A stretch of DNA of 46,310 nucleotides, from assembly GCA_012455605.1 (NCBI GenBank), contig GCA_012455605.1_3618.2; one strand, given 5' to 3'. Positions within the stretch are counted from its first letter, which is position 1; each line of letters starts with the position of its first letter. A program made the position numbers and the translations under genes. This document shows, piece after piece, positions 2,599-20,988 of the stretch. Under the pieces are notes generated by a model. That model was not told the origin of the DNA, did no database searches, and saw only the letters and a list, made by a program, of their open reading frames with translations. This stretch comes from a phage.

Positions 2599-2599
2599 G

Positions 2600-5197: not shown

Positions 5198-5202
5198 CAT
5201 AG

Positions 5203-5222
5203 GGGGCTGTTTGCCCCCTTTC
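5203..5222 (+). terminator. Putative intrinsic terminator/attenuator after gene 2600
   Basis: Hairpin GGGGGC-tgttt-GCCCCC followed by short TTT; overlaps RBS of next gene, so may be partial. Confidence 0.4.
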
Positions 5223-5232
5223 AGGAGAAAGA

Positions 5233-8200
5233 ATGGCTGATATTAAAGTTGTCAGAATTGAATCTCTTCCTGCCACTACCGCAGTGACAGAGGATGATTA
5301 CCTGGTTGTTCAACAACCAGACCTGACCCGTCGTGTAAAAATTGGCGATGTTGTCCATGTGGATGGGACTGTTTCTCATGTAATCTCCTTTAAGGAAGGT
5401 GGTAAGTTAAACGGCCCAATGGATTTTGCCTACTTCGAAGAGGAAGACCTCTACCTGCGTTGGAAAGGCGAATTTCCACACACTGTTCCTGCACTATCTT
5501 CACCGTACGCTGATGGTGGGATTACTGACGCTGCATGGATGGTATATACTGACCCGTCCTTAAGGGAGGAGTTGGAATCTACCATTGGCGCATCTATGAT
5601 CATGACAGCCGAAGGGCAGTCTGTCCAGGATGTAATGGATGTTACTGTTCAGACAGCTAACGATGCTAAAGCCCTTGCACAGCGTGTAGATTTTGGTACA
5701 GTGCACACTGTAGGTGATGTTATCCACCTTGATAACTTTGTTGGCCCTGCAGTTATTGAAGAGGGAAGAACCACCAACTATCCCTCCGTAGCAGCTGGTG
5801 AAAAATTTCTGAACGGTGTGGTATCTCGTCGTGATACTACAACTGTTGATGGTATTTTCCGTGGAGCTACCTCCGGAGCTATGTATACCATCGCAGTAAC
5901 CAACGGTGTAGCGACAACAAAAAGAATAGCACTTCGTGATGAATTTAAACGCCTGGAGGCAAACAACCCAACAAGAACAGTTATCCGTGCTGGAGATGAT
6001 TTAAACACGGCAGGGTACTTGCAGCTTGATGCAACAGGCCGTTGGGGTATGTGGAACCAACAAACAGCCTCGTGGCAACCTCTTGCTATAGAGCAAGGCG
6101 GTACAGGGGCCAGAGATGCCGCTGGAGTCCGTATCAATATCGGGGCTTTCTATAAGCAACGTGCAGCCCTTGAGCCAAATTTCAATATCAATAACTTGAC
6201 TGGTAATCAGGATGGTGTATACTACCAGCCGATGACTGCTTATGCAACTGAGGCAAATGGTTACCCTGCAGGTTCTGGTGCTGGTCACTTGATTGTTTGG
6301 CAGAACAATGCTAACGGCGGTACAGGTTGTCGTCAGGAATACTACCCATTCTCTAACGTAGATGTTTGGTATTTGAGAACCTATCAGGCCAACACAAACC
6401 AGTGGACTGCATGGCAGCCGATGGTCAGACCTCGTAACGATGATACCTTTAGAGCGCACATCGGTCTTGGTCCTAGAAATACCCCTACCTTCGGGCACAT
6501 TTACCTGTCTCAAAGTTCTGCTGATGTTAAGTCAGCCTCGGGTATTGTTAACGGGGACAAATACAGCGCTGACGGTGTCCTTGAGCATGGATATAGGATC
6601 TATTCTGAGGTAAGAAACGACAATAAGGCTTGGTTGACAATCCACCTGCATAAAGGTGCAAAAGGATCTGAAACTCACAGATATTTAGGTTTCCGCGAAG
6701 ACGGAGTATTAGACTGCCCTAAATACATGCAGGTTGGGGATCTCACTGGTCAGCTGACAAACTGGGGACTTGGAGAGTGGATCCGTAGTTCAGGGGCAGA
6801 AAGAGGCTTCTGGGGGTCCAAGAAAGCCGCCAAGATGGTTGTCTGGGATGGTGGGATGGACGAATCCGGTAACGGCACTCTGGAATGGGGTGTTTATAAC
6901 AACCGGAAGGCCAAGTGGGAACCTTTACCTCAAGCCGCAGGTGGCACTGGAGCTACAACTTTAGCAGATGCTCAGAATCTGTTCAAAGTTCCTATAGCAG
7001 CAGGTGTGAAAGACTTCTTAACACTGCCAAGAACCGCAGGGATGGAAGATGGGAAATACTACCCGATCATCGTTAGAACAGATCCGTACTATGCTCCAGC
7101 AACTGGTACTGATATTACCATAGTTACCAGATCGTCATCTGGAAATGACCCTATGAACTGTGCTACCTTACAGTGTCACTATAGAACTGGTGGTTGGACA
7201 GACAGAGGAGACTCTTTCTACGGGGTAGTAAATTTCTACCAGAATGAAAAAGCACTTCTTGGGATGGTTGCTCCAACAAGGGGTAAACAAGAATATGTTG
7301 CTTTCTATGCAGAGGCGCGTGCTTTCCCTGTCAGCATATACGCAAGTAGAAATGTTGTCGAGGTGTTTACCAGGGAGCAAGATTACCAGGTTGGCTCTGT
7401 AACAGACAATCAGGACGGTGTTAAGTTCGTTGCACCTCTCCAGTCAGCAGATTTAAATCTGGCTGTTCTCGGAGATAACAATACCAACACCAGACCTATT
7501 GTTGACTTCAAAGGTACCTCTGGGTTCTACACTGGCGGCGGCACACAGTGGCACTATATAGGCACTGCTGAACGCTATGCGATAATGAGCAAAATGAACA
7601 TGCCTAAAGTAGAGCTATGGGCTGACGGTTTTGACTATTTGTGCTACAGTGGTCCTAGAAAGGCGCTATTCTCTAACGCAGGATTCCAGTGTGCATCAGA
7701 TGGAACAGAGGATCTAACTAACGGCACGTTTACCTCTAAATGCGGTAATGGTGCTGGCCTTAAAGGTCAAGCAGAGTTCAGGTCTACTCCAGAGGCTGGT
7801 CAAGTTATTGTTCGAGATGTTGTGGGCACAGCTCATAGATTCTACAACTTCAATAAGGATGGTACTTTTTCAGCCCCAGGTGGTTTTGTATGTCATACTG
7901 GTGGAGACTGGAACAACCAGTTCGGGCCTAATAACCCGTCAAAAATAATGGCTGGTAATGTTAACGGTCCACAAGACACCATGGTTGTAGGAGGTTTATC
8001 TGTAGGATTCTCGGGAAACTACGCTTTCCAGATTGCTGGCAGACAAAGTAACTTATACACCAGGTCTATAGAAGGCGGTAATCACCACCCTTGGAATAAG
8101 GCTATGCAGCACAGGGGTCAGGGTCTCGGTACCTCAGACCTTGACACCTATAATGGGTTGTGGGAAGGCATTTACCATCAATCGGCAAATAATGATGCAA

Positions 8201-9045
8201 CATATGATCGTCATTATCCGGTAAATGAAGCTGGAACACTTATTGTGTTGCAGAATAACGCCAATAACGGTAATGGGTGTGTTCAAGAGTATATTACCTA
8301 TCACGGCGATAGATTTATACGTTATGGTAATATGGTGAGACAAACCTTCACTTGGGGCCCGTGGACCCAAACAGGTGGCAATGGTGTTAGCTTCAGATAT
8401 GGAGGAACAACTCCCGAAGGGGAAATACCGACCTCAGAGTTAAAGGTATATATTTCTGGAAGCCATGTTACTAATAACGGTGGCAACATGCCTGCGAATA
8501 GCGCTCATATGCACTATTGGGGCAACGGCAGCACAGGGGATCGCCCAAACGTGTTAGAGTTTAAGGTTCTTGACGAGTCTCAAGCAAATTGGGTATGGCA
8601 TTGCGGTACCTTGCCGGATAAATCAAGATATCTTTCTGTAAACGGTGCTGTGAATTGCACATCTGTCAATCAGAGTTCTGACAGAGACCTGAAAGACAAC
8701 ATATCTGTTATTCCTGATGCGTTAGAAGCTATCCGGAAGATGAAGGGTTATACCTACACTTTAAAAGAGAATGGTATGCCTTATGCAGGTGTTATAGCAC
8801 AAGAAGTGCTTGAAGCACTGCCGGAAGCAGTTAGCTCTTTCGTGCAAAGAAAGGAAATCCCAAACCCTGATCAAGATGGAACTCCTTTGATAACAGAGGA
8901 AAGATTCTACAGCGTGGATTACGCAGCCGTAACAGGCTTGCTTGTCCAGGTTTGCAGAGAACAGGACGATAAAATAACCGCCCTTGAGGAGCAGGTTAAA
9001 AAATTGACAGAGGTTGTTACTGGGTTGCAAGAGAAACTGAAGTAA
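5233..9045 (+). CDS. Long tail fibre protein with C-terminal intramolecular chaperone (peptidase S74-like) domain
   Basis: 1270 aa. N-terminal anchor homologous to gene 1930. Internal fibre-repeat motifs (WxPLxxxxGGTGA...A..N). C-terminus SDRDLKDNISVIPDALEAIRKMKGYTYTLKENG...AQEVLEALPE...coiled coil matches the Ser-Lys autoproteolytic chaperone pattern of endosialidase/T5 L-shaped fibres. Confidence 0.7.
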   Translation: MADIKVVRIESLPATTAVTEDDYLVVQQPDLTRRVKIGDVVHVDGTVSHVISFKEGGKLNGPMDFAYFEEEDLYLRWKGEFPHTVPALSSPYADGGITDAAWMVYTDPSLREELESTIGASMIMTAEGQSVQDVMDVTVQTANDAKALAQRVDFGTVHTVGDVIHLDNFVGPAVIEEGRTTNYPSVAAGEKFLNGVVSRRDTTTVDGIFRGATSGAMYTIAVTNGVATTKRIALRDEFKRLEANNPTRTVIRAGDDLNTAGYLQLDATGRWGMWNQQTASWQPLAIEQGGTGARDAAGVRINIGAFYKQRAALEPNFNINNLTGNQDGVYYQPMTAYATEANGYPAGSGAGHLIVWQNNANGGTGCRQEYYPFSNVDVWYLRTYQANTNQWTAWQPMVRPRNDDTFRAHIGLGPRNTPTFGHIYLSQSSADVKSASGIVNGDKYSADGVLEHGYRIYSEVRNDNKAWLTIHLHKGAKGSETHRYLGFREDGVLDCPKYMQVGDLTGQLTNWGLGEWIRSSGAERGFWGSKKAAKMVVWDGGMDESGNGTLEWGVYNNRKAKWEPLPQAAGGTGATTLADAQNLFKVPIAAGVKDFLTLPRTAGMEDGKYYPIIVRTDPYYAPATGTDITIVTRSSSGNDPMNCATLQCHYRTGGWTDRGDSFYGVVNFYQNEKALLGMVAPTRGKQEYVAFYAEARAFPVSIYASRNVVEVFTREQDYQVGSVTDNQDGVKFVAPLQSADLNLAVLGDNNTNTRPIVDFKGTSGFYTGGGTQWHYIGTAERYAIMSKMNMPKVELWADGFDYLCYSGPRKALFSNAGFQCASDGTEDLTNGTFTSKCGNGAGLKGQAEFRSTPEAGQVIVRDVVGTAHRFYNFNKDGTFSAPGGFVCHTGGDWNNQFGPNNPSKIMAGNVNGPQDTMVVGGLSVGFSGNYAFQIAGRQSNLYTRSIEGGNHHPWNKAMQHRGQGLGTSDLDTYNGLWEGIYHQSANNDATYDRHYPVNEAGTLIVLQNNANNGNGCVQEYITYHGDRFIRYGNMVRQTFTWGPWTQTGGNGVSFRYGGTTPEGEIPTSELKVYISGSHVTNNGGNMPANSAHMHYWGNGSTGDRPNVLEFKVLDESQANWVWHCGTLPDKSRYLSVNGAVNCTSVNQSSDRDLKDNISVIPDALEAIRKMKGYTYTLKENGMPYAGVIAQEVLEALPEAVSSFVQRKEIPNPDQDGTPLITEERFYSVDYAAVTGLLVQVCREQDDKITALEEQVKKLTEVVTGLQEKLK

Positions 9046-9052
9046 CTGTTTT

Positions 9053-9084
9053 GCCCTCGCTGCTTCGGCGGGGGCTTTTTGTTT
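9053..9084 (+). terminator. Intrinsic terminator
   Basis: GC-rich hairpin gccctcgc-tgcttcg-gcgggggc followed by TTTTTGTTTG. Confidence 0.7.
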
Positions 9085-9087
9085 GTA

Positions 9088-9116
9088 TTGCGTATTAACT
9101 TAAAATCTGGTAAAAT
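9088..9116 (+). promoter_or_regulatory. sigma70-like promoter with extended -10 (TTGCGT-17-TGg-TAAAAT)
   Basis: TGGTAAAAT extended -10 at 9108-9116, weak -35 TTGCGT 17 nt upstream; lies between terminator and RBS of gene 9148; motif recurs at 14599 and 20930. Confidence 0.5.
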
Positions 9117-9147
9117 AACTATCATGATTGTTTAACCAGGAGGCACA

Positions 9148-9738
9148 ATGTTTTTATGGGAAAGGCCTAGATACCTTCCAGATATTAGATTGGAGCTGCT
9201 GGCAGATATTGTTACGTTTAAAAGTCCGTTTACAGGTAAAGCGCAAAAAGTAACCTATGCCACGCCCAACTGGAAAGGCACTTTAACGGTTTCCAATATC
9301 AGCGAGTCACAGTTGTTAGAGCTTAAAAGCTTTGTTGATCAGGTGTATAAAGATGGAAACATCTTTCTTATTAAAACTTACGGTCACTCAGTTACAGCTA
9401 ATGAGCCAATCGCCCTTGGGCCTACTGGTAACGACGATTTTTTGAAGACGGTTGGGTGGGAGCCAAACAGAGACATAGCCAGAGCCGGAGATAAAATATC
9501 TGTCAATGATGAATTGAAAGTGGTAACAGCTCCAGTGCGTAGCGATGGTGTTGGGTCTGCTGTTATAAGCATATCTCCAAGACTTAGAAAACCTATTGCC
9601 GCAGGGGACACTATGAAGATAATAACTCAATCTCCGAAGGGCAGGTTTCATATTAGAGATATTTATAAAATTAAGCAAAAAGTCGATGCTATGCAAAAAG
9701 GTGATAATATAGTTATCAACTTCTTTGAGGATTTCTAA
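9148..9738 (+). CDS. Tail tip/baseplate-associated protein, unassigned
   Basis: ATG with AGGAGG RBS; first gene of a four-gene translationally coupled unit ending in the J-like fibre. No family recognised by eye. Confidence 0.4.
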   Translation: MFLWERPRYLPDIRLELLADIVTFKSPFTGKAQKVTYATPNWKGTLTVSNISESQLLELKSFVDQVYKDGNIFLIKTYGHSVTANEPIALGPTGNDDFLKTVGWEPNRDIARAGDKISVNDELKVVTAPVRSDGVGSAVISISPRLRKPIAAGDTMKIITQSPKGRFHIRDIYKIKQKVDAMQKGDNIVINFFEDF

Positions 9739-9739
9739 G

Positions 9740-10291
9740 ATGATTAGAGCGCCATTAGATAATTTATTTCTTGAAAAACTGGAGCTTGATGGTGTTGAGA
9801 TCTTGATTGCTGCAAAACTGGAGCTCCCGACAGGAACTGTCAGGGTGTGCTCAGGTACTGGTGTTGTAGTAATTGAGGGACAACATTTTATAGGGATAGG
9901 TGGATCAGCAACATTAACTGCTGTGTCTGAGAAAGATGCCACCAACTTCGGATCTGTGGTAGCAACATTAAACGGGTTTGATCCTAAGTATGTGGGTGAT
10001 CTGCTGAAGACGGAGTATTCTGGTTGTCGTGCCACGTTGTACATTACCGCTATGGAGAATGGTCTGCCTGTTACAACTAATGGCTTGTTTGACGGACTTA
10101 TAACAGATATGGCTATTCAGACGGGTGAGAATAGTGCTTTGTCCATATCCATCTCTTCCATCTTCAACAGTTGGTTAAGAGGTTTTCCTTATCGGTACAC
10201 GGAGGAAAGCCACAGCTCAAGAAACGATAATGACAGATTTTTTAAATATGTGGATCAGGTGGCGAGCCGCCCGATCATTTGGGAGGTTTAA
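9740..10291 (+). CDS. Tail tip assembly protein, unassigned
   Basis: Track start 9725 is TTG; ATG at 9740 with GAGGA upstream chosen. Stop overlaps next start (TAATG at 10289-10293). Confidence 0.4.
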   Translation: MIRAPLDNLFLEKLELDGVEILIAAKLELPTGTVRVCSGTGVVVIEGQHFIGIGGSATLTAVSEKDATNFGSVVATLNGFDPKYVGDLLKTEYSGCRATLYITAMENGLPVTTNGLFDGLITDMAIQTGENSALSISISSIFNSWLRGFPYRYTEESHSSRNDNDRFFKYVDQVASRPIIWEV

Positions 10292-10716
10292 TGAGCACGC
10301 ATCCTCGTCTAGTGGACTGGCAAGAAAGGTTGTGGAAAGTATTTGACGAAGAGGCAACCATACCTTTTGAATGGGGATTCCACGATTGTTGCACTTTTGC
10401 GGCTAAGTGTGTTGATGCCCAATACGGAACAGATTTTCTTTCTAACTTCGAAGGAACGTATAAAACAGAGTTGGAAAGCAAGAGATGGTGCATGCTCCGT
10501 TTCAAAACCACACACCTGCCTACTATTTTTGATCTCTTTATGACTCGGCTGGATACTCCTAAACAGGTTCAGCGTGGAGATATTGTCATTTTCGAAGGTC
10601 TGAACGGCCTCACCGCTGGTGTGTTCTGGAACAACCAGATTTGGGCGAAAGGTGATAAAGGGGTCTTTATGTTCGACATGAAAGATTCTATCGTTGTTGA
10701 TGTCTGGAGGTATTAA
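10291..10716 (+). CDS. Tail assembly protein, lambda gpK-like NlpC/P60-type cysteine peptidase domain
   Basis: ATG at 10291 (track TTG start at 10279 rejected), RBS GGGAGG. Motifs GFHDCCTF and GDIVIFEG...LTAGVFWNNQIWAKG resemble the C-terminal domain of lambda K. Immediately upstream of the J-like gene with TAATG overlap. Confidence 0.5.
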   Translation: MSTHPRLVDWQERLWKVFDEEATIPFEWGFHDCCTFAAKCVDAQYGTDFLSNFEGTYKTELESKRWCMLRFKTTHLPTIFDLFMTRLDTPKQVQRGDIVIFEGLNGLTAGVFWNNQIWAKGDKGVFMFDMKDSIVVDVWRY

Positions 10717-13700
10717 TGCCAATTGCAATGATTGATAACATCGTTGCTTCTGCAAGATCTTCAAGTTATGACTGGAACGCATCCAAGGCAGCTCTGGCTG
10801 ACAGCCTGAACACTGTGACCACCAGAACTTTGGATAAGATTTTTGAGGGCAACAAATCTTACAGAAGTCAGCAAGATAGACAAAAGCTTCTCAGATCTTC
10901 TGCTGCACCTTGCTCTGTAGTGTATGGAAAGACACGCACATCTGGATTGCTTGCGTTTTTGGAGCAGGATAGCGACAGAACCCTCCATTGTGCTATTGTT
11001 CTTGCCAATCACCCTCTGGAAGGTATAGAAGATATACTTATCGACGGTAATCCTATTTCCTCGTATGGAGATCTGGTATCGTGGGAGCTACATAACGACA
11101 GAAAAACATCTGATCCTTTCATGGGTACACACTGCCCATCATGGTCACCTGACATGATAGGTAGAGGGATCAGTTGGCTACGTGCCAGCTTCAGGTTTGA
11201 CCCTAACAAGTTTCCTTTTGGGTTGCCAAACGTTACACTCGTCAAGATTGGTAAAAAATGCTATGATCCTCGTATCAGTAAAGAGGTGTACACCAATAAC
11301 GCTGCCTTGGTGATCCTAGACTATTTAAGAACGTACCTTAAATGTCCTGACGAAACCATCAACTGGGAGTCCTTCAAGGAGGCTGCCAACATATGCGACG
11401 AGGCGGTAAAAAACGCAGACGGAACCAGTGAGCGCCGTTACACCATTAACGGTGAGTTTGACATGGATGAGGCCCCAGCAAGTATTATGGCAGAAATGCT
11501 GAAAGCTTGCGGTGCAGATCTTAGTTATGTTGCTGGTAAGTATGGTTTGCTGGTTGGTGCATACTATGGCCCAGCAACAATGACACTTAGTGAGGACTGT
11601 GTCTGTGGTGAGGTTAAGATCTATCCGGAAGCCTCATTTGACAAAAGATCCAACACAATAACTGGCAGATTCACTAGCCCGACCAAAGGGTATTCTGAAA
11701 CAGATTTTCCATCAGTGTTTGTCCCAGAGTGGATAGAGAAGGATGGAGAAAGAAAGATAATCGATATAGATTATCGCTTTGTTACCAGTCCTTATCAAGC
11801 TCAGCGTGTTTCTGCAATCTTCCTAAGACGTGCTAGAGCTGGCAGGATTATTGAAGTCACCTGCAATATGCGAGGTTTTAAATTTAAGCCTGGCCGTTAT
11901 GTTACAATGGACCTCCCAAGTATTGGTATCGTGGGCCAAGAAATGAGGGTTCTTGAATGGGAGTTCACCAAAAAGGGCGGTGTCAAGGTAAAACTTCGTC
12001 AAGATGCTAAAGAGTGGAATGATGCCACAGGGCAACTTCCGGATTCCGGCGATGTAGATATTCCGATATCCCCGTCCGGTGTAGCTCAGCCGCAAAACTT
12101 CAGATACTCCGTTCTCCAAGCTGGGGAAGTAACTCACGGTGTTTTGGCCTGGGACAACGTTGGGACTTACGCTCAAAATATTGTGCAGGTAAGAAAGAAC
12201 GGAGAGATTGTTTGGACAGCACAGACAGTTGAGCAGTTTGTCCGTGTTGAAGGTCTGACTAAAGGTTCCTACACAGCCACTGTTGTTGCAACATCTTATA
12301 AAGGTGGTGTATCTCCAGAAGCGTATTGTGAGTTTAACATTCAGGCACCTGAAGCTCCGGTTTCTGTAGAGGTTAAGCAAGGATACTTTGCTATCACCTT
12401 GATTCCGCATAGTAGGGATTTAGCAAGTGTTAGCACCCAGTATGACTTTTGGACATCCGGTATGACAAGGTTGCCCGACACCAGTGATGCAACCGTTACT
12501 TCAAACGCCACCCGTATGGGTGTTGGTTCAACTTGGACATCTGAAGGTCTGCAGAACGATAAGGTTTATTATTGGTATATTCGAACCACAAACGCTTTTG
12601 GTAGTTCTCAGTTTGTAGAATGCGCTGCACGCTGCTACACCTCTATTGAGGATTTGATGCCTCAGATAGATGCTGAATTCAAAAAGACAGAAACTTATAA
12701 AGAGTTGATGAGCACTTTGGATTCCTCTATTGAAGAGGTTGAAAATCGTGTCACAGAACTTAACAGGTACATGGATGGTAGGGTAGATGAGGCATTCCAG
12801 CAACTTGGAGACAGAATAGGTGCGGTAGTTACAGAGACAACTCAGAAGTTCGAGGATGTCAATGGCAATATCACAGCGCTGGATAGGAAACTTGTTGCTG
12901 CACAGAACAAGTTCACCAACGATCTGAACACTGAAAGTGGAAGATTGGCATCCCTGATTGAGACAACCAATAAAGCAACTACTGATCTTCTGAACAAAAA
13001 GACAGAGGCTTTAGATGAGAAATTGGTTGCCGCCAAAGGTGAGCTGGTAGAGCAGATAGAAGGAGTTGAGAGCGGGTATTTAGCCGGAGATAAAACTCTA
13101 GATGGTAAGATTAATACTCAGAGAACAGAACTTGACGCAAGCATCTTGAGCACTAACCAGGCCACTGTGGATCTTTTGAACAGGACATCTGAAACTCTGG
13201 ATCAAAAGATTAGTCAGACAAACGCGACGGTATCTAAAAACTATACCACCCTTGACGGCAAGATAACTACCGCAAAAACTGACCTCAACACCTTGATTGC
13301 CAATACCAACAAGGCCACCACTGACTTGTTGAATCAGAAAACATCTGCACTGTCAGAGCAGATAACTTCTGCACGTGGGGAGATTTCTACCAACAAGCAA
13401 GCGATTGATGCTTTGGATGGAAAACTGACCTCCACAAAAACAGCGCTGGATGCTACAATTTCCGATACCAATAAAGCCACTGTGGACCTTATCAACGGCA
13501 CAGCGTCAGCTATTCGTCAAGAACTTGCTGTTGCTAAGCAGGAGATCATTGATGATGTTGGGGATGTGTCTGAGATCAGGGCTGCAGTAGCTACAACATC
13601 TAAGGCTGTAACCGACTTAGAGGGTAAAGTAAATGCTCAATGGGGCACAAAAATACAGGTAGACTCCGCAGGGAATAAATATGTTGCAGGTATTCAGTTG

Positions 13701-14555
13701 GGGATGGAAGGGTCTGGAGGCCAAGTTCAATCCTACTTCATGGTTAGCGCAAACAATTTTGCGGTATACAACCCTGGCAATGGAACAGCAACCCTTGCTT
13801 TCGCAATCAAGAACAACCAAGCGTTCTTGAAAGACGCTTTTATAGAGAATGGCACGATCTCCTCTGCCAAGATTGCACAAGAAATTTCGTCAAACAACTA
13901 CGATGGCAACGGGTACCATAAATACGGTTGGTATATTAACAAGAACGGGCACGCCCAATTTATGGATGTGTGGGTGAAAGGCAACATCAACGCCAGTTCT
14001 GGTAACTTCACAGGGGCAGTTAACGCCACTAGTGGTACCTTCCGTGGGGATGTTTATGCCAATAATGGTAGCTTTAGAGGCACCATAGATGCAACCGGAG
14101 GTACCTTCCGTGGTCGTGTAGAAGCTTCTGTTATCCGCGCTAACCAGTTCGAAGGTGCAATTGTTGCACACAGGACTTACGGAGATTGTGCTCCAGTATA
14201 TAACTCCCAGCAAAGGGTTTGCCGTTGGAGGTGGAGATACGTAGATAACGTTTCAGGTCAGGGTAAGAACGTAACATTCTTCTTTAAACTGAATGGTACT
14301 CTTGCCAGCTCCCAGCTTAACGTTTGGATAGCCGGACATCAAATCCTTGCAGGTAAGAAGTACGGAAACGACAACAACGGCATGTGTGCGGTAGGGATAA
14401 CGGGTCTTGGTGAACAAACCATAGATATTGTTGTTGAAATCTACACACCATGGTCAACGTCTTCTGTAACAGGGGTCGCAATATCCTGTCCTACTGTTGT
14501 GGTAAGCCGTTCTAACTCTAGTTTCCAAGGACCTTGGAACGAGTCTCACGACTAA
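10716..14555 (+). CDS. Tip attachment / central tail fibre protein, lambda gpJ-like
   Basis: 1279 aa. Multiple segments co-linear with lambda J as recalled: NNAALVILDYL (vs NNMAWCLWDML), FN3-like region, GYFAITLIPH / YDFWTS / YYWYIRTTNAFGSSQFVE, KYVAGIQLGMEG...QSYFMVSANNFAVYNPGNG, C-terminal GxFxG repeats (SGNFTGAVNATSGTFRGDVYANNGSFRGTIDATGGTFRG). Confidence 0.8.
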   Translation: MPIAMIDNIVASARSSSYDWNASKAALADSLNTVTTRTLDKIFEGNKSYRSQQDRQKLLRSSAAPCSVVYGKTRTSGLLAFLEQDSDRTLHCAIVLANHPLEGIEDILIDGNPISSYGDLVSWELHNDRKTSDPFMGTHCPSWSPDMIGRGISWLRASFRFDPNKFPFGLPNVTLVKIGKKCYDPRISKEVYTNNAALVILDYLRTYLKCPDETINWESFKEAANICDEAVKNADGTSERRYTINGEFDMDEAPASIMAEMLKACGADLSYVAGKYGLLVGAYYGPATMTLSEDCVCGEVKIYPEASFDKRSNTITGRFTSPTKGYSETDFPSVFVPEWIEKDGERKIIDIDYRFVTSPYQAQRVSAIFLRRARAGRIIEVTCNMRGFKFKPGRYVTMDLPSIGIVGQEMRVLEWEFTKKGGVKVKLRQDAKEWNDATGQLPDSGDVDIPISPSGVAQPQNFRYSVLQAGEVTHGVLAWDNVGTYAQNIVQVRKNGEIVWTAQTVEQFVRVEGLTKGSYTATVVATSYKGGVSPEAYCEFNIQAPEAPVSVEVKQGYFAITLIPHSRDLASVSTQYDFWTSGMTRLPDTSDATVTSNATRMGVGSTWTSEGLQNDKVYYWYIRTTNAFGSSQFVECAARCYTSIEDLMPQIDAEFKKTETYKELMSTLDSSIEEVENRVTELNRYMDGRVDEAFQQLGDRIGAVVTETTQKFEDVNGNITALDRKLVAAQNKFTNDLNTESGRLASLIETTNKATTDLLNKKTEALDEKLVAAKGELVEQIEGVESGYLAGDKTLDGKINTQRTELDASILSTNQATVDLLNRTSETLDQKISQTNATVSKNYTTLDGKITTAKTDLNTLIANTNKATTDLLNQKTSALSEQITSARGEISTNKQAIDALDGKLTSTKTALDATISDTNKATVDLINGTASAIRQELAVAKQEIIDDVGDVSEIRAAVATTSKAVTDLEGKVNAQWGTKIQVDSAGNKYVAGIQLGMEGSGGQVQSYFMVSANNFAVYNPGNGTATLAFAIKNNQAFLKDAFIENGTISSAKIAQEISSNNYDGNGYHKYGWYINKNGHAQFMDVWVKGNINASSGNFTGAVNATSGTFRGDVYANNGSFRGTIDATGGTFRGRVEASVIRANQFEGAIVAHRTYGDCAPVYNSQQRVCRWRWRYVDNVSGQGKNVTFFFKLNGTLASSQLNVWIAGHQILAGKKYGNDNNGMCAVGITGLGEQTIDIVVEIYTPWSTSSVTGVAISCPTVVVSRSNSSFQGPWNESHD
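12948..13640 (+). repeat. In-frame tandem repeats (~55-60 aa unit, 4-5 copies) encoding a coiled-coil stalk inside the J-like gene
   Basis: Repeating peptide pattern xTNKATTDLLNxKTxALxExIxxAxxEIxxxxxxLDGKIxxxKTxLD (ETTNKATTDLLNKKTEAL / STNQATVDLLNRTSETL / NTNKATTDLLNQKTSAL / DTNKATVDLINGTASAI). Confidence 0.6.
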
Positions 14556-14564
14556 CCTTTAAAG

Positions 14565-14589
14565 CCCCGCTTCGGCGGGGTTTATTTTT
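14565..14589 (+). terminator. Intrinsic terminator (UUCG tetraloop hairpin)
   Basis: CCCCGC-TTCG-GCGGGG followed by TTTATTTTTA; identical 16-mer hairpin recurs at 40803. Confidence 0.8.
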
Positions 14590-14598
14590 ATGCTCAGA

Positions 14599-14627
14599 TT
14601 GACTATTGTTACAAAATTTGGTAAAAT
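14599..14627 (+). promoter_or_regulatory. sigma70-like promoter TTGACT-17-TGg-TAAAAT
   Basis: -35 TTGACT at 14599-14604, 17-nt spacer, extended -10 TGGTAAAAT at 14619-14627; about 35 nt upstream of GTG start of gene 14661. Confidence 0.65.
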
Positions 14628-14660
14628 ACCTTGTAGAGATTTTCATACCGGAGGAGTGAC

Positions 14661-16151
14661 GTGGCTAAGTATGGATTGACAGAGGCTGGTTTCGTTATAC
14701 CAACCCTAAATGACCTAATCGTTGAAACTAAGCAAAGCCTGATCCGTGCTTTTGGCGAAAACTTCAACGTACAGAGTAACTCCGTTGCAGATAAGCTGAC
14801 CACTATCTTCAACGAGCGAGAGTATCAACTTATTCTTATGGCAGCATCTGTATACGCATCACAGACGCTGTATGGGGCAGAAGGTATTTACCTGGATGAG
14901 CTTCTTGGAAGACAGGGTATTTACCGAAGAGGCCGTTCTAAATCATCAGGTACCTGCCAGTTGACAATCAACACAACTGTGCCGTACAATATGATTTATG
15001 ATTCCAAAACTTATACGCTGGACAGTGGCAACTTTGTTCTTAGCAACGATGTGCAAGTAGCAGGGAATCTTATTGCTCACAGAATAAATGCTCCAGACCT
15101 AAGGATTGGTAAATACAACTTTCAAATTACCAACCAGACAGATGGAAGTATCAAAACAAAAAGTCTGGTTTTAACAGATAAGTCTCTGGACTCTTCTGAT
15201 TTGCCAAGCTTTTACGGAGAGATTAAGCGATTCATTGTCGATAATACAACCCTGTTGAACGACGATTTGATTCAGGTCGATATGTTGACAGGAACGTTGT
15301 GGATAGGGTACAATTCGAATCTTGATCAAGTTGGACTTAATAGTAGAGTAGATTTCAGAGTATCCCCGATTGTAGGGGAAAGAACTATCACCCTGGATGT
15401 TATCGCTAACGAGGCTGGTGAGCTGTCAAGAGAGGCAGAAACCGTGACAACAATGTCACCTACCCCCAGTGGATTTATCAAGCTTACCAACCGAGAAAGA
15501 TTCAATGAGGGCAGGGATGTTGAGAAAGACTCAGAGTATCGCTTAAGAGCTTCCAGCACAAAACAGTTAACATCTAAGGCTACCCGTCCTGCAATCCTTA
15601 GCGCTGTAAGCGAGGTGAAAGGTGTTGAGAAAGTGAGGGTGTTCTCCAACAACACCGATAAAACTGATGCTAAAGGTATACCTCCTTACAAGTTCCAAGT
15701 GGTTGTGTTTGGTGGTGCAACGGAGGACATTTGCCAAGCACTTTACCAAACTATAGCCTGTACTAACAGGACTTATGGTAATATTTTCTACGATGTCACT
15801 ACATCTGATGGTCAAACTGAAAGAATTTATTACTCCAAGGCAAATACCTACCGCCTAGATGTAAGAATTACCTACTCCGGTGCCGCACTTTCCACAACCG
15901 AAAAAGATGCCATTGTAGAGGCTCTTTTGCAGGTTGTTAACGGACTGGATGTTGCAGATACGTTGTATAATATCCAATTGGTCGGCGCTGCATCTGCTGC
16001 TGTATCAATAGGCAGATTTAATAGACTGGTAATTCAAGTTAAACCAGTAGGAGCTTCTGATGAAGCTTACACTACAAACGATATTGTTGCGAACATGACC
16101 GAGGTGTTTGACCTCGACGAAAGTAATATAACTTTCCAACAAACTATTTAA
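14661..16151 (+). CDS. Baseplate wedge protein, Baseplate_J-like
   Basis: GTG start 5 nt after GGAGG. Position after W/tip genes and before I-like gene; segments such as YLDELLGRQGIYRRG and C-terminal ...TEKDAIVEALLQVVNGLDV are reminiscent of P2 gpJ-family proteins (recalled, not aligned). Confidence 0.5.
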   Translation: MAKYGLTEAGFVIPTLNDLIVETKQSLIRAFGENFNVQSNSVADKLTTIFNEREYQLILMAASVYASQTLYGAEGIYLDELLGRQGIYRRGRSKSSGTCQLTINTTVPYNMIYDSKTYTLDSGNFVLSNDVQVAGNLIAHRINAPDLRIGKYNFQITNQTDGSIKTKSLVLTDKSLDSSDLPSFYGEIKRFIVDNTTLLNDDLIQVDMLTGTLWIGYNSNLDQVGLNSRVDFRVSPIVGERTITLDVIANEAGELSREAETVTTMSPTPSGFIKLTNRERFNEGRDVEKDSEYRLRASSTKQLTSKATRPAILSAVSEVKGVEKVRVFSNNTDKTDAKGIPPYKFQVVVFGGATEDICQALYQTIACTNRTYGNIFYDVTTSDGQTERIYYSKANTYRLDVRITYSGAALSTTEKDAIVEALLQVVNGLDVADTLYNIQLVGAASAAVSIGRFNRLVIQVKPVGASDEAYTTNDIVANMTEVFDLDESNITFQQTI

Positions 16152-16162
16152 GGCGGCGAGAT

Positions 16163-16849
16163 ATGGCAGAGATTAAGTCGGATGTTAACCACATCCACAC
16201 TCTGCCAGATTTTGTTCAGGGAGGTCTTGACTACCTGCCTGGAGATTTTCTGGCTGAGAAGGTTAATTTGGTCACATTCTTAACCGTGTACCTTAAAAGG
16301 TTGGAGGATGTTGATAAGATGCTGGTAGGTTTGGCTGAAGGAAGATTGCTTAACAATGCCAGCGGAAGATACCTTGACGAAGTTGGTAATCAACTTGGTA
16401 TTCTTAGGAATGGACTTTCAGATGCTGATTTTCGTGCCACACTAATTATTCAGCAGGCCGCAGCATCAAGGGGCGGGACTCGCGAAGATGTCATCTCCAC
16501 CTTGCGACAATTGTTCGGAAGAGACAATTTCGATACGTGGAAAGGAGACAACTTCAGGTTTGACATAAATATTAGAAAAACTTGCTTTGACATATTGCAG
16601 TCTATCGATCAGATCTTAGATATGCTACCATTGCCTTGTCATTTGCGTCTTACAGAATCGCAAGGGCAAGCTTTTGGTTTTGAAGGGGACTCTACAGCTC
16701 TTGGCTTCGGATCAGTGTGGGAAGAAAACCAATTCGGAGTTGGTGGGCTGGCTACTTTGCTATATGTTCCTGACGTAAGACCTGATTGGGACACCACAAC
16801 CATTTATTGTGAAAGTATTACAGTAAACGCAACTAGACAGGAGGGTTAA
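16163..16849 (+). CDS. Baseplate protein, possibly gpI-like
   Basis: 228 aa, immediately downstream of J-like gene, stop overlaps next start (TAATG). Assignment is positional. Confidence 0.35.
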   Translation: MAEIKSDVNHIHTLPDFVQGGLDYLPGDFLAEKVNLVTFLTVYLKRLEDVDKMLVGLAEGRLLNNASGRYLDEVGNQLGILRNGLSDADFRATLIIQQAAASRGGTREDVISTLRQLFGRDNFDTWKGDNFRFDINIRKTCFDILQSIDQILDMLPLPCHLRLTESQGQAFGFEGDSTALGFGSVWEENQFGVGGLATLLYVPDVRPDWDTTTIYCESITVNATRQEG

Positions 16850-18921
16850 TGGCAACAGCTGTTTTTAAACCTTACCGTGATTACTCTACAATGGCTGCAC
16901 AGTTTCATTACCGAACAGTTCAGGATACTGCCGTTCCTGGTAGGGATTATAATCATGTTGAGGGCGATGTAACTATCCCAATTGGGGCAACCAGTATTGA
17001 GATCCCCGTGGAAATTGTTGACAAATTACCCAACAGGTTGCCAAGAAGCTTCTTTATGGAGTTTTCATCAAAATCTCAAGGGGTGATGATTGGAACACAA
17101 AGGGCGAAATGTACAATAGTTTCAGATGAGAATCTTGACAGGATATCTTGGGATACTGTTGAGGAGAGAATGTTTCACCCAAGGTATTGGGTTACAACTA
17201 CTCAGCAGACTGAAAGTACCTGTATTGTTGCAGATAACAACTGTTGTATTAACCGTTTAGTGTCAAGAACATATGGAGGTATGGCTGGGTGCATTTGGGA
17301 AACAGTTGACAAGTATGACCATTTCGGTATTGGGTTTGATGATCATTATGAGATGAGAAATACCAAGCTTTGGTTCAGAATGTCAATAACCAACGCCAGC
17401 AACTTCTCCACTCCTGAAAAGATGATTATGACTGTAGACCTTGTTGATGGCACAATCATCTATGTTCCTTTAGCTCAATATGCTGTCAGCATCTCAGAGG
17501 ATAAGAATGTTGCAGAAATTCATATTGATTTCGAGGACTGCGTCGGGATGGACCAGAACAACAATATGATGGGTGTTGATCCTCGACAGGTGAGAAGGAT
17601 TTTAATACCGCTTATGCCTAAAGATTGGGTAAGCAATAGCACAAACCCAAGAACGGAAAATGTAGAGTGTGAGTTACGCCTAGATCTGCTTCAGCCAGAC
17701 ACAGGCTGGAAAATGATGCAACTTAACAATATTCAGGTGAAAGAACACGACGTTGGGATCTGCACAGCATATGACGATATGTGGAACGTGTCTCCTTTAA
17801 GGGTGTTGAACAATATCAAGCGTCTGGGCTATACCGGAACCATAAACCATTATGTTGGTATGAGTCATTATTATGACTACACATGGTCAGGAACTCAATG
17901 GTCTATAAACAGAACAGGAGCGCTAAACGCTGCAGCTTATAAATGGCATGATGATTTTATGTACAATGCCAAACGACATAACTTCGACGTTATGCAATCT
18001 GTAAGTTTTGAGCTTTTCAGCGATGCCTGCCCGTTGGAATGGACCCAAAGAGACTGGAACGATAACTACGCTAAAACAGGGTATACACCTTGTAGCTACC
18101 TCCTGTCTCCAACCATTGAAGAGGGTATGAATTTCCTTACTGCAGTATTTAAGAATTTTGCATCAGCCGCTATGAGAAACAACCTGCCAGTGATTATGCA
18201 GGTTGGTGAACCGTGGTGGTGGTACAATACCGATACTCGTAGACCTTGTATTTATGATTACCCTACAAAGCAGGCGTTTTATGATGAGACAGGTGAGTAT
18301 GCATTAGATATTGGGACTATTGACGATCCTAAAACTGGCGGTGTTTACGACAAGTATGTAGCATTTTGTCGTGGTAAGCTTGGCGCTCGTATTGCGGCTA
18401 TTTCAAAGGCAATAAAGGCACACGCTGCATCAGCTCAGATGACAGCTTTGCTGTTTTTCCCAACCATCATGGAAACCGAGCTTACGCAAAAGCTGAACCT
18501 TGCTGACCAATATAAAAAGGAAGCAGGTGCTCTTGATTTCTTCTGCACCGAGTGCTACGATTGGGTGATGCAGGGAGGTATTGAAAAGGCAAAAGAGTCT
18601 GTAAACATACCTATCGTTAAGTTAGGTTGGCAACCGTCTGAAATACAATACCTTGCAGGGTTCGTTCCTAGTAAAGAGCTTGCTCCGGTATATGGCTACG
18701 ACCCAACCAGGAATTACCAAGAATTTTTATGGAGATGTATCTGCGGAAACATGGCAACCATAGAGTATAGATACCCTGAGGTAAAACAGTATGTGTGGGC
18801 ATACCCGCAAGTAATGTCTGACAGCATCACTGTTACAGCCAGAGATTCTACCGTGCTTCATATGGGGCAGGTTGCTCTGAAAGGGTATGTAGAAGATGTT
18901 GTCCCGCCAGACTTCTCATAA
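16849..18921 (+). CDS. Tail-associated protein with N-terminal Calx-beta-like domain
   Basis: 690 aa. N-terminal FHYRTVQDTAVPGRDYNHVEGDVTIPIGATSIEIPVEIVDK fits the Calx-beta pattern; remainder Trp/Tyr-rich, possibly carbohydrate-binding or hydrolase. Occupies the fibre (H) position after the I-like gene. Confidence 0.4.
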   Translation: MATAVFKPYRDYSTMAAQFHYRTVQDTAVPGRDYNHVEGDVTIPIGATSIEIPVEIVDKLPNRLPRSFFMEFSSKSQGVMIGTQRAKCTIVSDENLDRISWDTVEERMFHPRYWVTTTQQTESTCIVADNNCCINRLVSRTYGGMAGCIWETVDKYDHFGIGFDDHYEMRNTKLWFRMSITNASNFSTPEKMIMTVDLVDGTIIYVPLAQYAVSISEDKNVAEIHIDFEDCVGMDQNNNMMGVDPRQVRRILIPLMPKDWVSNSTNPRTENVECELRLDLLQPDTGWKMMQLNNIQVKEHDVGICTAYDDMWNVSPLRVLNNIKRLGYTGTINHYVGMSHYYDYTWSGTQWSINRTGALNAAAYKWHDDFMYNAKRHNFDVMQSVSFELFSDACPLEWTQRDWNDNYAKTGYTPCSYLLSPTIEEGMNFLTAVFKNFASAAMRNNLPVIMQVGEPWWWYNTDTRRPCIYDYPTKQAFYDETGEYALDIGTIDDPKTGGVYDKYVAFCRGKLGARIAAISKAIKAHAASAQMTALLFFPTIMETELTQKLNLADQYKKEAGALDFFCTECYDWVMQGGIEKAKESVNIPIVKLGWQPSEIQYLAGFVPSKELAPVYGYDPTRNYQEFLWRCICGNMATIEYRYPEVKQYVWAYPQVMSDSITVTARDSTVLHMGQVALKGYVEDVVPPDFS

Positions 18922-18933
18922 TCAGGAGATAAA

Positions 18934-19974
18934 ATGTCAAAACCTAGTTTTCCATTAGAGATTTGGGCAGAGGAGGATCAGGTTCTGCCTAACACCCACA
19001 GACAGAACAGGCTACGCCCGATTGATGATTTGTGGAGAAAAGGTTGGGATCTTGGTCAAAAGCCCTCATGTGAAGAACTTAACTATATTTTCAATATGCT
19101 CGGAACTTGGGCAAAATACATTGCTGACGAGCAGATCCCCGCTCAAGAAGGCCGTTATCTGGTACGTGATAATAACTTGAGTGATCTTTTGAACATTCCT
19201 GTTGCCCGTAGAAACCTTGGGATTATTACTAAGGAAGAGGCAGACGCCAGGTATGTAAAAGTTACAGGTGATACAATGACAGGCCCATTGGGTTTGCAAC
19301 GTATCAACTTTAAAGCTGCCGAGACAGATAAGGCTTGGATAGAGACAACTATTGGCCCAGATAAGACAACTCTCGACTTTGGGTTAAGTGATAATACTGG
19401 GGCGTTTGATGATGGTGGCACATCTACGGTAGATGCGTTTCGTTGGAGATTCCAGCCAACTCAGCCGGATATTAATCCAGAGTTCACTTTGATGTACCTT
19501 AACGCGATCACGGCTAACCGTGCGCTGTTGAAAGTGGTAGGCAATGTTGAAGTTGTCGATAACATGAGGTGCAATAACCTTACTATCAGCAATACAGCAA
19601 CATTCACCAACTGTAATGTGGCTAGTCAGTTGACGGCTGGGTCGGTATATGTTAATGGTGGTGCAAGTTGTGACAGTATGGTTGTAAGAAGCCAGCACTG
19701 TGTTGTCGGTAACAGAAATGTGGTTCGCTCTGTGAACGGAGTGACGGCTAACGGTAACGGTGATGTAACGATCACTATCCCGCAGACAGGTGTGCAAGAC
19801 ATCAGAATCGGTGCAAGACTTGTGGACGGAGTTTCTGAATCTCCAATCCGCAACGGCTACGTTGTCACAGGCTGGCATTTCGGTGACAAAAAAGAGATGC
19901 GTGGTTCAACCTACTGGGCAGGACCTTTACAAAAACTTGTAAATGGTCAATGGATCACTGTTAATTATGCATAG
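18934..19974 (+). CDS. Tail fibre protein (paralog A)
   Basis: 346 aa. N-terminus MSKPSFPLEIWAEEDQVLPN...KGWDLGQKP and C-terminus YWAGPLQKLVNGQWITVNYA conserved with gene 20989; fibre motif VARRNLGI; followed by a Tfa gene. Confidence 0.65.
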   Translation: MSKPSFPLEIWAEEDQVLPNTHRQNRLRPIDDLWRKGWDLGQKPSCEELNYIFNMLGTWAKYIADEQIPAQEGRYLVRDNNLSDLLNIPVARRNLGIITKEEADARYVKVTGDTMTGPLGLQRINFKAAETDKAWIETTIGPDKTTLDFGLSDNTGAFDDGGTSTVDAFRWRFQPTQPDINPEFTLMYLNAITANRALLKVVGNVEVVDNMRCNNLTISNTATFTNCNVASQLTAGSVYVNGGASCDSMVVRSQHCVVGNRNVVRSVNGVTANGNGDVTITIPQTGVQDIRIGARLVDGVSESPIRNGYVVTGWHFGDKKEMRGSTYWAGPLQKLVNGQWITVNYA

Positions 19975-19988
19975 ATCGGAGGACTAGC

Positions 19989-20573
19989 ATGAAAATACTT
20001 CAAGAGTTTAAACTTTACCAACCGGGATCTGGCGAATACCACGCCAACAAGGAAACCAAGGAGCTGACCCCTCAAGAGGTTGAGGATTACACCGCATACA
20101 CTGGGTATTTTTTACGTAATGATGATGGCGATTGGTATGTGCAGTCACGAACATTACGACAAGAAAATCCGGGTTGTATCTTCCTACTTGTTGACGAGAA
20201 GGGAATTCTTAAGACATCTACAGAAGAACCTGATGCCTTATGGCCTGCTCCAGGTCTTCGTGTGGTTATCGCCAAAAAAGAAGAGGTACCAGAAAACATT
20301 ATGCTTCACCACGACGCTTTGCGTTTAGTTGGTGATGAATTTGTCACAGATAATGAATTCTTTGTTCAACAGGCAGAGGGTGTCATAGAGACAGAACTTG
20401 CTTGGGCTACTGCTAGAATTGGTGCCTATCAAGACATGATTGACCTTGAATATGATCTTACTGATGACCAGAAACGTAACATCAGAGATTTGAAAATGTA
20501 CAGGGTAAAACTTCTTGAAATAGATACATCTAAAGCCCCTGACATTTTCTTCCCGGAGCGACCTACCCTCTAA
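19989..20573 (+). CDS. Tail fibre assembly chaperone (Tfa / gpG-like)
   Basis: 194 aa directly after a fibre gene; C-terminal signature KMYRVKLLEIDTSKAPDIFFPERP matches the conserved Tfa motif (YR..L...D...AP.I.WP..P). Confidence 0.75.
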   Translation: MKILQEFKLYQPGSGEYHANKETKELTPQEVEDYTAYTGYFLRNDDGDWYVQSRTLRQENPGCIFLLVDEKGILKTSTEEPDALWPAPGLRVVIAKKEEVPENIMLHHDALRLVGDEFVTDNEFFVQQAEGVIETELAWATARIGAYQDMIDLEYDLTDDQKRNIRDLKMYRVKLLEIDTSKAPDIFFPERPTL

Positions 20574-20940: not shown

Positions 20941-20958
20941 TCTCTAAAGTGTTAAAAT
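20930..20958 (+). promoter_or_regulatory. sigma70-like promoter with extended -10 (TTGCAT-17-TGt-TAAAAT)
   Basis: TGTTAAAAT at 20950-20958, -35-like TTGCAT 17 nt upstream, overlapping the terminator tail; about 30 nt before gene 20989. Confidence 0.45.
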
Positions 20959-20988
20959 AGTCCTAAGGAATTTTCTCAGGAGAACGCG

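Follow-up and report, generated by a model that had tools for sequence, protein, structure and literature searches.

A siphophage-like tail-tip cassette within the contractile baseplate gene cluster of an rV5-like Escherichia coli phage

Baseplate genes around the cassette

The phage DNA considered here (46,310 nt; assembly GCA_012455605.1, contig GCA_012455605.1_3618.2; hereafter the window) carries at 9148-14555 a block of four genes that is very probably a complete siphophage tail-tip cassette, in identity as well as in origin, lodged among the baseplate genes of a myophage. Judged from its sequence, the window belongs to Vequintavirus and represents an rV5-like Escherichia coli myophage. 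The region 9148-18921 shares 99.2% identity with Escherichia phages naam and slur16 and 97.7% with rV5, and it is matched by 121 phage records, nearly all of them from Vequintavirus. The genes form one tail and fibre cluster made up of large open reading frames (ORFs) on the + strand, which is also the strand of the parts described below at 38-1920 and 9053-18921. Base composition is even along the region and GC content has no anomaly across the cassette, which means that composition gives no sign of a recent cassette transfer.

The original prediction for this DNA held that contractile-type baseplate genes are combined here with a tip module like that of lambda gpK and gpJ. Profile searches uphold its contractile assignments, and so does orthology to the phi92 baseplate, whose structure is solved. 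The cluster opens with the C-terminal part of a contractile-type baseplate hub (38-514; PHROG 'baseplate hub', 3e-35), whose gene runs past the window start. This protein is 60-63% identical to the hubs of phages Av-05 (Avunavirus) and KpS8 (Mydovirus) and 33% identical to that of the phi92-like phage VEcB (Justusliebigvirus), and its counterpart in phage RudolfGeigy is annotated 'baseplate hub protein'. The predicted V-like gene follows at 514-1191 and encodes a central spike of the P2 gpV/phi92 type, carrying the Pfam spike N-terminal domain PF18352 (1.4e-9, above the cut-off). We take this domain and the phi92 spike protein to be Gp138_N and gp138, respectively.

The gp25/P2 gpW-like gene at 1204-1920 encodes the sheath initiator. 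The motif by which it had been recognized, LYSDI...FDELFG, is real and is found at residues 4 and 50, but it lies outside 9148-18921, where the mixed apparatus had been placed. The protein matches PHROG phrog_120, 'baseplate wedge subunit' (6e-21), its homologue in a divergent Vequintavirus-like lineage (L036) carries the Pfam Sheath_initiator domain, and by position it is the orthologue of the phi92 sheath initiator gp139. On the far side of the cassette, the Baseplate-J-like gene (14661-16151; PHROG phrog_6) encodes a baseplate wedge protein orthologous to phi92 gp145. It scores 36.7 bits against Pfam Baseplate_J, for which the cut-off is 21.1, and shares 32% identity with the phi92-like protein and 56-60% with the proteins of Av-05 and KpS8. 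The I-like gene (16163-16849), in the position of P2 gpI, encodes a second wedge protein that is the orthologue of phi92 gp146, with a match to PHROG 'baseplate protein' (2.5e-103) and tblastn matches in VEcB, Av-05, and KpS8.

Positional orthologues of the hub, spike, sheath initiator, and both wedge genes are all present in VEcB, and cryo-electron microscopy (cryo-EM) of phi92 showed the counterparts of these window genes to form the hub, the spike, the sheath initiator, and the wedge heterotrimer (PMC13450770). Directly upstream of the point that matches the window start, RudolfGeigy (98% identical) has genes for the tape measure, tube initiator, plug, and hub. More generally, tape-measure and tube-initiator genes lie directly upstream, outside the window itself, in genomes that are 98-99% identical, and the sheath and tube proteins of rV5 have been detected by mass spectrometry (PMC3606486). 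The contractile baseplate encoded at 38-1920 and 14661-16849 is by these comparisons conventional and of the phi92 type. It has in common with the 'Swiss army knife' baseplate of phi92 and the Vequintavirinae a tube initiator, plug, hub, spike, sheath initiator, and two wedges, as well as a short fibre like that of Mu and a number of side fibres whose genes lie between those for the sheath initiator and the wedges.

The four cassette proteins and their siphophage relatives

The lambda-like unit predicted between the W-like and Baseplate-J-like genes is present and intact, but it comprises four genes (9148-14555) rather than two. It does lie between the W-like and wedge genes, although three fibre genes (1930-9045) separate it from the former. 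The four genes, which encode a protein resembling the distal tail protein (Dit), the N-terminal part of a split hub (hub-N), a DUF6950 protein, and a J-like protein, are tightly coupled, and two of their junctions are ATGA overlaps. All four proteins are full-length, collinear homologues (32-54% identity) of siphophage proteins whose genes directly follow the tape-measure gene. For Seuratvirus CAjan the identities are 32% (Dit-like), 40% (hub-N), 45% (DUF6950), and 54% (J-like).

One relative of this kind is a 60-kb siphophage-like contig (L006), in which a tape-measure gene, three small genes, and a J relative succeed one another and the four window proteins match in order. Six more siphophages (Serratia, Klebsiella, Vibrio, Roseobacter, Pseudomonas) have, in this order, a tape-measure gene, genes for proteins of about 195, 190, and 140 residues, and a J-like gene. 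Together with CAjan and Yersinia phage PY54, this places the cassette directly after the tape-measure gene in nine of nine siphophage relatives examined. In the rV5-like phage, by contrast, the tape-measure gene is followed by the myophage genes for tube initiator, plug, hub, spike, and sheath initiator, and the cassette is not adjacent to it.

The tips of the Queuovirinae (Seuratvirus CAjan and Nonagvirus JenK1) and of PY54 offer the closest comparison, with four genes in common, in equal order and of nearly equal sizes. Their J proteins are collinear with the window protein through the hub, the FN3 domains, and the tip-fibre domain. In those phages the cassette ends a non-contractile tail and directly follows the tape-measure gene, whereas here it lies about 8 kb from that gene, behind a myophage hub, spike, and sheath initiator and three fibre genes. 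The window J-like protein also differs in having a hydrophilic rather than hydrophobic N terminus, a longer rod, and a different distal domain.

The first cassette gene (9148-9738; rV5 ORF40) encodes the Dit-like protein of 196 residues, which matches the PHROG 'distal tail protein' profile at 1e-49. It is a full-length homologue of PY54 ORF17 (37%) and of a 194-residue CAjan protein (32%), both of which are encoded directly after the tape-measure gene. A search of the PDB with the Dit-like profile gave a sole match, to the Dit of DT57C at a weak E value of 0.075. No Pfam family matched, and comparison of the profile with lambda gpM by hhalign, which for this protein and for hub-N was run against single lambda sequences, revealed no similarity. 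The ratio of nonsynonymous to synonymous substitution rates (dN/dS) for this gene is 0.014-0.026.

The second gene (9740-10291; rV5 ORF39) encodes the 183-residue hub-N protein, the equivalent of lambda gpL and of residues 15-178 of T5 pb3, and its product is 40% identical to the CAjan protein over the full length. Searches of the PDB with the single sequence or with a 10-sequence profile found nothing. A 96-sequence profile, built from an exhaustive homologue search and compared with the whole PDB, matched only pb3 of DT57C and T5, at residues 15-178 (5.5e-7 and 1.5e-4). The Pfam family PF09931, 'baseplate hub N-terminal attachment domain', matches seven of the 96 family members (best 6e-5); this family, the hub attachment domain Gp84_N of phiJL001, is presumably that of RcGTA g13-type proteins. 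No similarity between the hub-N profile and lambda gpL was found by hhalign, and word-indexed searches with ORF39 and ORF40 brought up near-identical sequences only. Against FV3, Aya, and rV5, the gene has accumulated 17-48 synonymous changes and not a single nonsynonymous one.

In some members of the hub-N family (P0244, P0251, P0253, P0315, P0346), the domain forms the C-terminal part of a protein of 320-490 residues. The PHROG profile matched by the window protein likewise spans 390 positions, of which 173-359 are matched. This placement suggests that the domain is fused in some phages with another protein, possibly Dit.

The third gene (10291-10716; rV5 ORF38) encodes a 141-residue protein of the DUF6950 family (Pfam, 2.5e-33), a gpK-like, degenerate NlpC/P60 domain that is 45% identical to a 'putative peptidase' of CAjan. 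Residues F26, W28, G29, D32, and C33 are invariant in the family alignment, with D32-C33 kept across 10 members. The hhalign program placed the FEWGxxDC and QRGD motifs of DUF6950 on FEHGVTDC and QPGD of lambda gpK, a weak alignment (P 0.0095). A reading of the motifs finds Thr, Ala, Ser, or Leu in 10 of 10 members at the catalytic His position that lies within 'NHAAIY' in lambda gpK, and no invariant His occurs anywhere in the 10-member alignment. An MPN domain is also lacking from the protein. The predicted K-like NlpC/P60 identity therefore stands as far as the cysteine motif, but because the catalytic His position is lost in all ten members, the protein would not qualify as a canonical C40 peptidase.

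The last cassette gene (10716-14555; rV5 ORF37, gp37) encodes the J-like protein, a hub-plus-fibre protein of 1279 residues resembling gpJ and pb3. A hydrophilic N-terminal segment (residues 1-62; 10716-10901), recognized by its hydropathy and a low predicted local distance difference test score (pLDDT), precedes siphophage hub domains that are gp27-like and of the pb3/gpJ N-terminal type (residues 63-490; 10902-12185), where AlphaFold2 pLDDT is mostly 80-97. Next are two Ig/FN3 domains (residues 491-680; 12186-12755), collinear with gpJ 667-850, and a helical rod with four repeats of 51-62 residues (residues 681-955; 12756-13580) that matches coiled-coil families and the P22 needle. A tail-tip fibre domain (residues 956-1116; 13581-14063), collinear with gpJ 843-991, leads to a conserved distal domain (residues 1117-1279 plus stop; 14064-14555), which is a putative receptor-binding or docking tip.

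Several segments of this protein had been predicted to be collinear with lambda gpJ, and BLASTP indeed aligns two of them, residues 498-684 against J 667-850 and residues 916-1126 against J 808-990. The Ig/FN3 region reaches 2e-17 in this comparison and also matches PDB entry 8iyk_J, and the fibre domain matches PDB structures of lambda J and an F2-pyocin fibre. Pfam Ig_J_second (1.2e-30) and Phage_Tail_Tip (1.2e-38) are both above their cut-offs, and Ig_J falls below its own. The NCBIfam model lambda_TipJ gives 155 bits against a cut-off of 1950, with its best stretch at residues 497-723.

The N-terminal region speaks against a generic fibre. Pfam Phage-tail_3 is below threshold on the J-like protein itself (E 0.1), but relatives of its first 500 residues (40-55% identical) include many that carry this family (PF13550). 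An AlphaFold2 model of residues 1-500 (pLDDT 78) has the fold of a siphophage hub, with Foldseek matches in the PDB to DT57C/T5 pb3 (1e-24) and lambda gpJ (5e-18), and also to T1, RcGTA, Chi, and JBD30. Siphophage hubs score from 1e-24 to 1e-12 and myophage hubs 1e-9 or weaker, and a comparison with predicted viral structures gave the same picture. The J-like family profile aligns to pb3 residues 266-943. Since hub-N matches pb3 15-178 and the J profile aligns from pb3 266 onward, ORF39 and the N terminus of ORF37 together are one pb3-type hub, split as in lambda gpL and gpJ.

The extreme N terminus has changed character in Vequintavirus. Peak 19-residue hydropathy there is 0.31-0.36, versus 1.5-2.5 in homologues with complete N termini, and a stretch of about 45 residues at the start of the protein is hydrophobic and Ala- and Gly-rich in eight of eight siphophage cassette relatives as well as in metagenomic homologues with complete N termini. 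The ends of the segment still align, with MPIAMI/MPPAII at the start and DRQKLLRS/ERKQVLRS at the end. We infer that a segment located in the tip lumen or inserting into a membrane has been lost, which fits a tip that no longer conducts DNA.

The rod and the distal domain behave differently among Vequintavirus genomes. The rod repeats (12966-13580; J residues 751-955) start at residues 751, 813, 864, and 918 and have the motif (T/S)N(K/Q)AT(T/V)DL(L/I)N. They exist at the protein level only, as no DNA-level tandem repeat was detected in the rod. Alleles of 1199, 1279, and 1381 residues differ only in this helical region (about residues 640-960), and their hub and distal domain are 95-100% identical. 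The distal domain is found only in Vequintavirus, at 82-100% identity and with dN/dS of 0-0.04, apart from a weak 27% match to the J C terminus of Nonagvirus JenK1.

Comparison with tips of known structure clarifies how far lambda serves as a model. As in lambda (gpM, gpL, gpK, gpI, gpJ), a small protein and J each supply part of the hub, an NlpC/P60-type protein is encoded just before J, and the FN3 and tip-fibre segments of gpJ 667-990 are collinear with the J-like protein. Unlike lambda, the cassette has no gpI equivalent and no detectable similarity to gpM or gpL, and its K-like protein lacks the catalytic His. BLASTP found no significant matches between the cassette proteins and lambda M, L, K, or I, and for the three small proteins single-sequence searches of the PDB gave nothing meaningful and those of NCBIfam nothing. 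The nearest relatives are the Queuovirinae and PY54 tips and, in structure, T5 pb3, rather than lambda.

In the T5/DT57C tip (Dit p140, hub pb3, fibre pb4), pb3 is the best structural match of the J-like hub (Foldseek 1e-24; template modelling [TM] score 0.66). The T5 hub is a single chain, whereas that of the window is divided over two genes, and sequence identity is about 14%. The T5 tip module is not known to include a DUF6950 gene. The baseplate of RcGTA, the gene transfer agent of Rhodobacter capsulatus (g12 Dit, g13 hub, g14 peptidase, and g15 'megatron') has a four-gene layout with sizes similar to those of the cassette. Its chain 6tba_8A is a strong fold match to the J-like hub (5.8e-16; TM score 0.62, normalised to the target), although in RcGTA the complex forms the tip on the axis of a short, non-contractile tail, unlike the peripheral role proposed below.

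Conservation, distribution, and place in the virion

The cassette has its own boundaries. On the left, after the upstream fibre gene, an intrinsic-terminator-like hairpin (9053-9075; 10-bp stem with eight GC pairs, then a T run) precedes the promoter-like extended -10 motif TGGTAAAATA (9108-9117). On the right, a second hairpin of this kind (14562-14583; 9-bp stem, then a T run) is followed by another exact copy of TGGTAAAATA (14619-14628), ahead of the wedge genes. At both exact sites the motif follows a terminator hairpin, and it occurs nowhere else in the window. A copy with one mismatch, TGTTAAAATA, lies at 20950-20959, before the next fibre gene. Being present in three intergenic gaps of the tail cluster, TGGTAAAATA/TGTTAAAATA may be a phage promoter element.

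Measured against FV3, Aya, and rV5, all four cassette genes have dN/dS of 0-0.09, with synonymous divergence (dS) of up to 0.6. Their reading frames are intact in all six genomes checked, and more than 80% of the cassette is present in at least 114 records. The cassette is under strong purifying selection and is maintained as a unit with its own terminators. In a Vequintavirus-like lineage that is 87% identical in ORF39 the gene order is kept, which indicates that the acquisition is old within the genus.

The combination of architectures does look unusual, as had been predicted. A tblastn search with hub-N returned 345 phage records that fall into two identity bands only. The upper band (at least 99% identity; 118 records) is Vequintavirus, including records labelled Campylobacter phage. 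The lower band (below 60% identity) contains 227 records, and those sampled are 30-83 kb in size and siphophage-like. None of the four cassette genes was found at the equivalent site in Av-05, KpS8, or VEcB. The sheath-initiator gene of Av-05 is followed directly by the wedge gene, and KpS8 and VEcB have other fibre genes between the two. In Septuagintavirus W70 the sheath-initiator and wedge genes are adjacent, so that gene order places the cassette as absent. The siphophage cassette is thus absent from the phi92-like phages as well as from Avunavirus, Mydovirus, and Septuagintavirus, where the site holds different fibre genes or no fibre gene; among the myophages sampled, it thus appears restricted to Vequintavirus.

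Two observations concern database entries related to the cassette. Eighteen GenBank records named 'Campylobacter phage' (e.g., MG065647, MG065646, and MG065682), with C. jejuni given as host, are 93-100% identical to E. coli rV5-like phages in this region, and they look mislabelled or derived from contaminating coliphages. Separately, a Salmonella enterica chromosome (L004/L005, 10001-12316) carries an N-terminally shortened J-like gene of 771 codons whose product is 50% identical to the window J-like protein. This gene has no Dit, hub-N, or DUF6950 genes with it, adjoins integrase genes, and lies upstream of DUF6453, Phage_tail_C_2, and Tox-PLDMTX; the locus is probably a decayed prophage remnant.

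Taken as a whole, these data are best explained by an acquired siphophage tip cassette that has been reused as a peripheral host-binding fibre, a reading to which we assign a probability of roughly 0.6. An ancestor of Vequintavirus very probably took the cassette from a Queuovirinae- or PY54-like siphophage into a variable site for fibre genes, flanked by the sheath-initiator gene and the wedge genes of an otherwise ordinary phi92-type baseplate. A small tip complex would still assemble, presumably from a Dit hexamer, a hub-N trimer, and a J trimer. By a rough estimate, the J trimer would extend as a fibre of about 70 nm, consisting of the hub, two FN3 domains, a helical rod of about 275 residues, the tip domain, and the distal domain. 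The complex would be seated at the baseplate periphery as an accessory host-binding fibre and would not conduct DNA. A peripheral position is favoured because the baseplate axis is already held by the myophage hub and spike, and DNA conduction is not expected because a tube or tape-measure partner is missing and the hydrophobic N terminus of J has been lost.

Taken alone, the peripheral-fibre role seems to us about an even bet. More tentative still is the fuller proposal that the whole siphophage tip, with its Dit ring, split hub, and J fibre, is reused as a side appendage, possibly in six copies, and has lost its role as a DNA conduit. Such an appendage could explain unassigned density or thin 70-nm fibres on rV5-like virions. 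Thin tail fibres of 70 nm have been reported for rV5 virions, a length with which our rough J-trimer estimate agrees, and gp37 peptides were found by mass spectrometry of those virions (PMC3606486). The RBPseg study describes the N-terminal region of a Vequintavirinae fibre as frequent among central tail fibres, and its maps contain unassigned density attached to the head of another fibre, 'TC8' (PMC12143355).

A number of points weigh against this interpretation. Support for gp37 in rV5 virions is weak (four peptides; 4.2% coverage), at about the level of terminase, and gp38-40 are absent from the 19 virion proteins detected (PMC3606486). In cryo-EM maps of the baseplates of two Vequintavirus phages, Bas49 and Bas54 (EMD-51868 and EMD-51869), only three fibres out of the nine annotated could be placed, and the J-like fibre was not one of them (PMC12143355). 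The distal domain is nearly invariant between genomes, which would be unusual for a specificity determinant, though it fits a conserved receptor. The Dit assignment draws on a PHROG label, gene order, and the single PDB match at E 0.075. A Dit ring normally docks on the tail tube, and no docking partner for the Dit-like ring was identified. Finally, the hub-N fold model, computed from a four-sequence alignment only, reached a pLDDT of just 35 and was not used.

Alternatively, the J-like protein alone might be built into virions, where its hub domain or N-terminal segment would anchor it directly as a trimeric fibre, with the three small proteins acting as assembly factors that are discarded. 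We consider this unlikely. Among the products of ORF37-40 only gp37 was detected in rV5 virions, and the DUF6950 protein resembles lambda gpK, a tail assembly protein that is probably discarded itself. Purifying selection, moreover, fits chaperones as well as it fits structural proteins. However, hub-N is the equivalent of residues 15-178 in T5 pb3, a hub made of one chain, which makes it an integral hub part rather than a chaperone, and Dit and the equivalents of gpL and gpM are virion components in every solved siphophage tip. The mass spectrometry listed just 19 proteins, and small ones of low copy number would be missed.

The same four proteins form the axial tail end in every known siphophage and the cassette is placed within the baseplate gene cluster, so that it might be imagined to build an axial tip under or around the hub and spike, giving a hybrid tail end for penetration or DNA delivery. 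That arrangement is very improbable in a phage equipped with the full myophage set of tube initiator, plug, hub, iron-tipped spike, and sheath initiator, all orthologous to axial parts of phi92. The cassette is missing from sister genera whose hub and spike proteins are 58-63% identical, the hydrophobic N terminus of J has been lost, and the spike tip must stay free to pierce. There is equally little to recommend an inert leftover of recombination with a siphophage, or proteins that act away from the virion, for instance by diverting host defences that detect central tail fibres. The cassette is self-contained, related genera lack it, and defence systems targeting central tail fibres have been reported, but the low dN/dS despite substantial dS, the intact frames in six of six genomes, the many records, the gene order conserved in the 87%-identical lineage, and the gp37 peptides in virions all argue otherwise.

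The reading of the cassette as a reused tip bears on phages of practical interest, because rV5-like phages are among the E. coli phages most often isolated and are therapy candidates. Treating ORF37-40 as one unit supplies a concrete complex to model and fit, with an assumed composition of Dit6-hubN3-J3. If this complex is peripheral, then tail modules have been exchanged between long-tailed morphotypes as whole assemblies and not just as fibre tips, and nature would offer an example of a tail tip whose architecture has outlasted its function in DNA delivery. If the side-appendage version is true, a complete multi-protein organelle rather than a single fibre domain has been reused. Should the complex not be on the baseplate, the finding shrinks to an annotated fibre gene and three conserved helper genes.

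Earlier annotation and neighbouring fibre genes

Parts of the cassette have been annotated before. The 2006 GenBank record of rV5 states that ORF37-40 resemble four PY54 proteins, and later GenBank names include 'distal tail protein', 'tail protein', 'central tail fiber J', and 'tail tip assembly protein'. The rV5 paper reported COG4733 and a likeness of gp37 to a Mu-type hub (PMC3606486). In the literature covered, which left most subscription journals outside the search, no work was found that treats ORF37-40 as a complete siphophage tip cassette, asks where the cassette products are located, or mentions the lost hydrophobic N terminus of J. The gene-level facts are thus already annotated, and what is added here is the view of the block as an intact, selected, and reused tail-tip unit.

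The last gene of the region, at 16849-18921, lies inside the span given for the mixed apparatus but belongs to neither module. It encodes a 690-residue fibre resembling N4 gp65/gp64, with Pfam NCTSP_N and TIM-barrel_NCTSP domains (4e-80) and a PDB match to Gp64 (9lc0_M). Its 'non-contractile tail sheath' Pfam match was considered as a sign of a second tail type and rejected, as the match is to the fibre family of N4 gp65. A 2026 preprint (10.64898/2026.04.02.716166) reports this family to be the receptor-binding protein for the NGR glycan in Vequintavirus and phi92-like phages. The presence of this N4-type fibre means that a podophage appendage, too, has been reused on this myophage.

Other fibre genes flank these modules. 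The proteins encoded at 1930-2598 and 5233-9045 start with a TSP1/Gp66 N-terminal docking domain of tail spikes, as found in the branched tail-spike complexes that CBA120 and G7C carry, a hint that a branched fibre scaffold is encoded just upstream of the cassette. Downstream, paralogous short tail fibre genes at 18934-19974 (346 residues) and 20989-22032 (347 residues) belong to one PHROG family, and a lambda-type tail-fibre assembly gene (19989-20573) lies between them. The corresponding paralogues of rV5 are 42% identical (PMC3606486), and in related genera the short tail fibre gene is present as a single copy.

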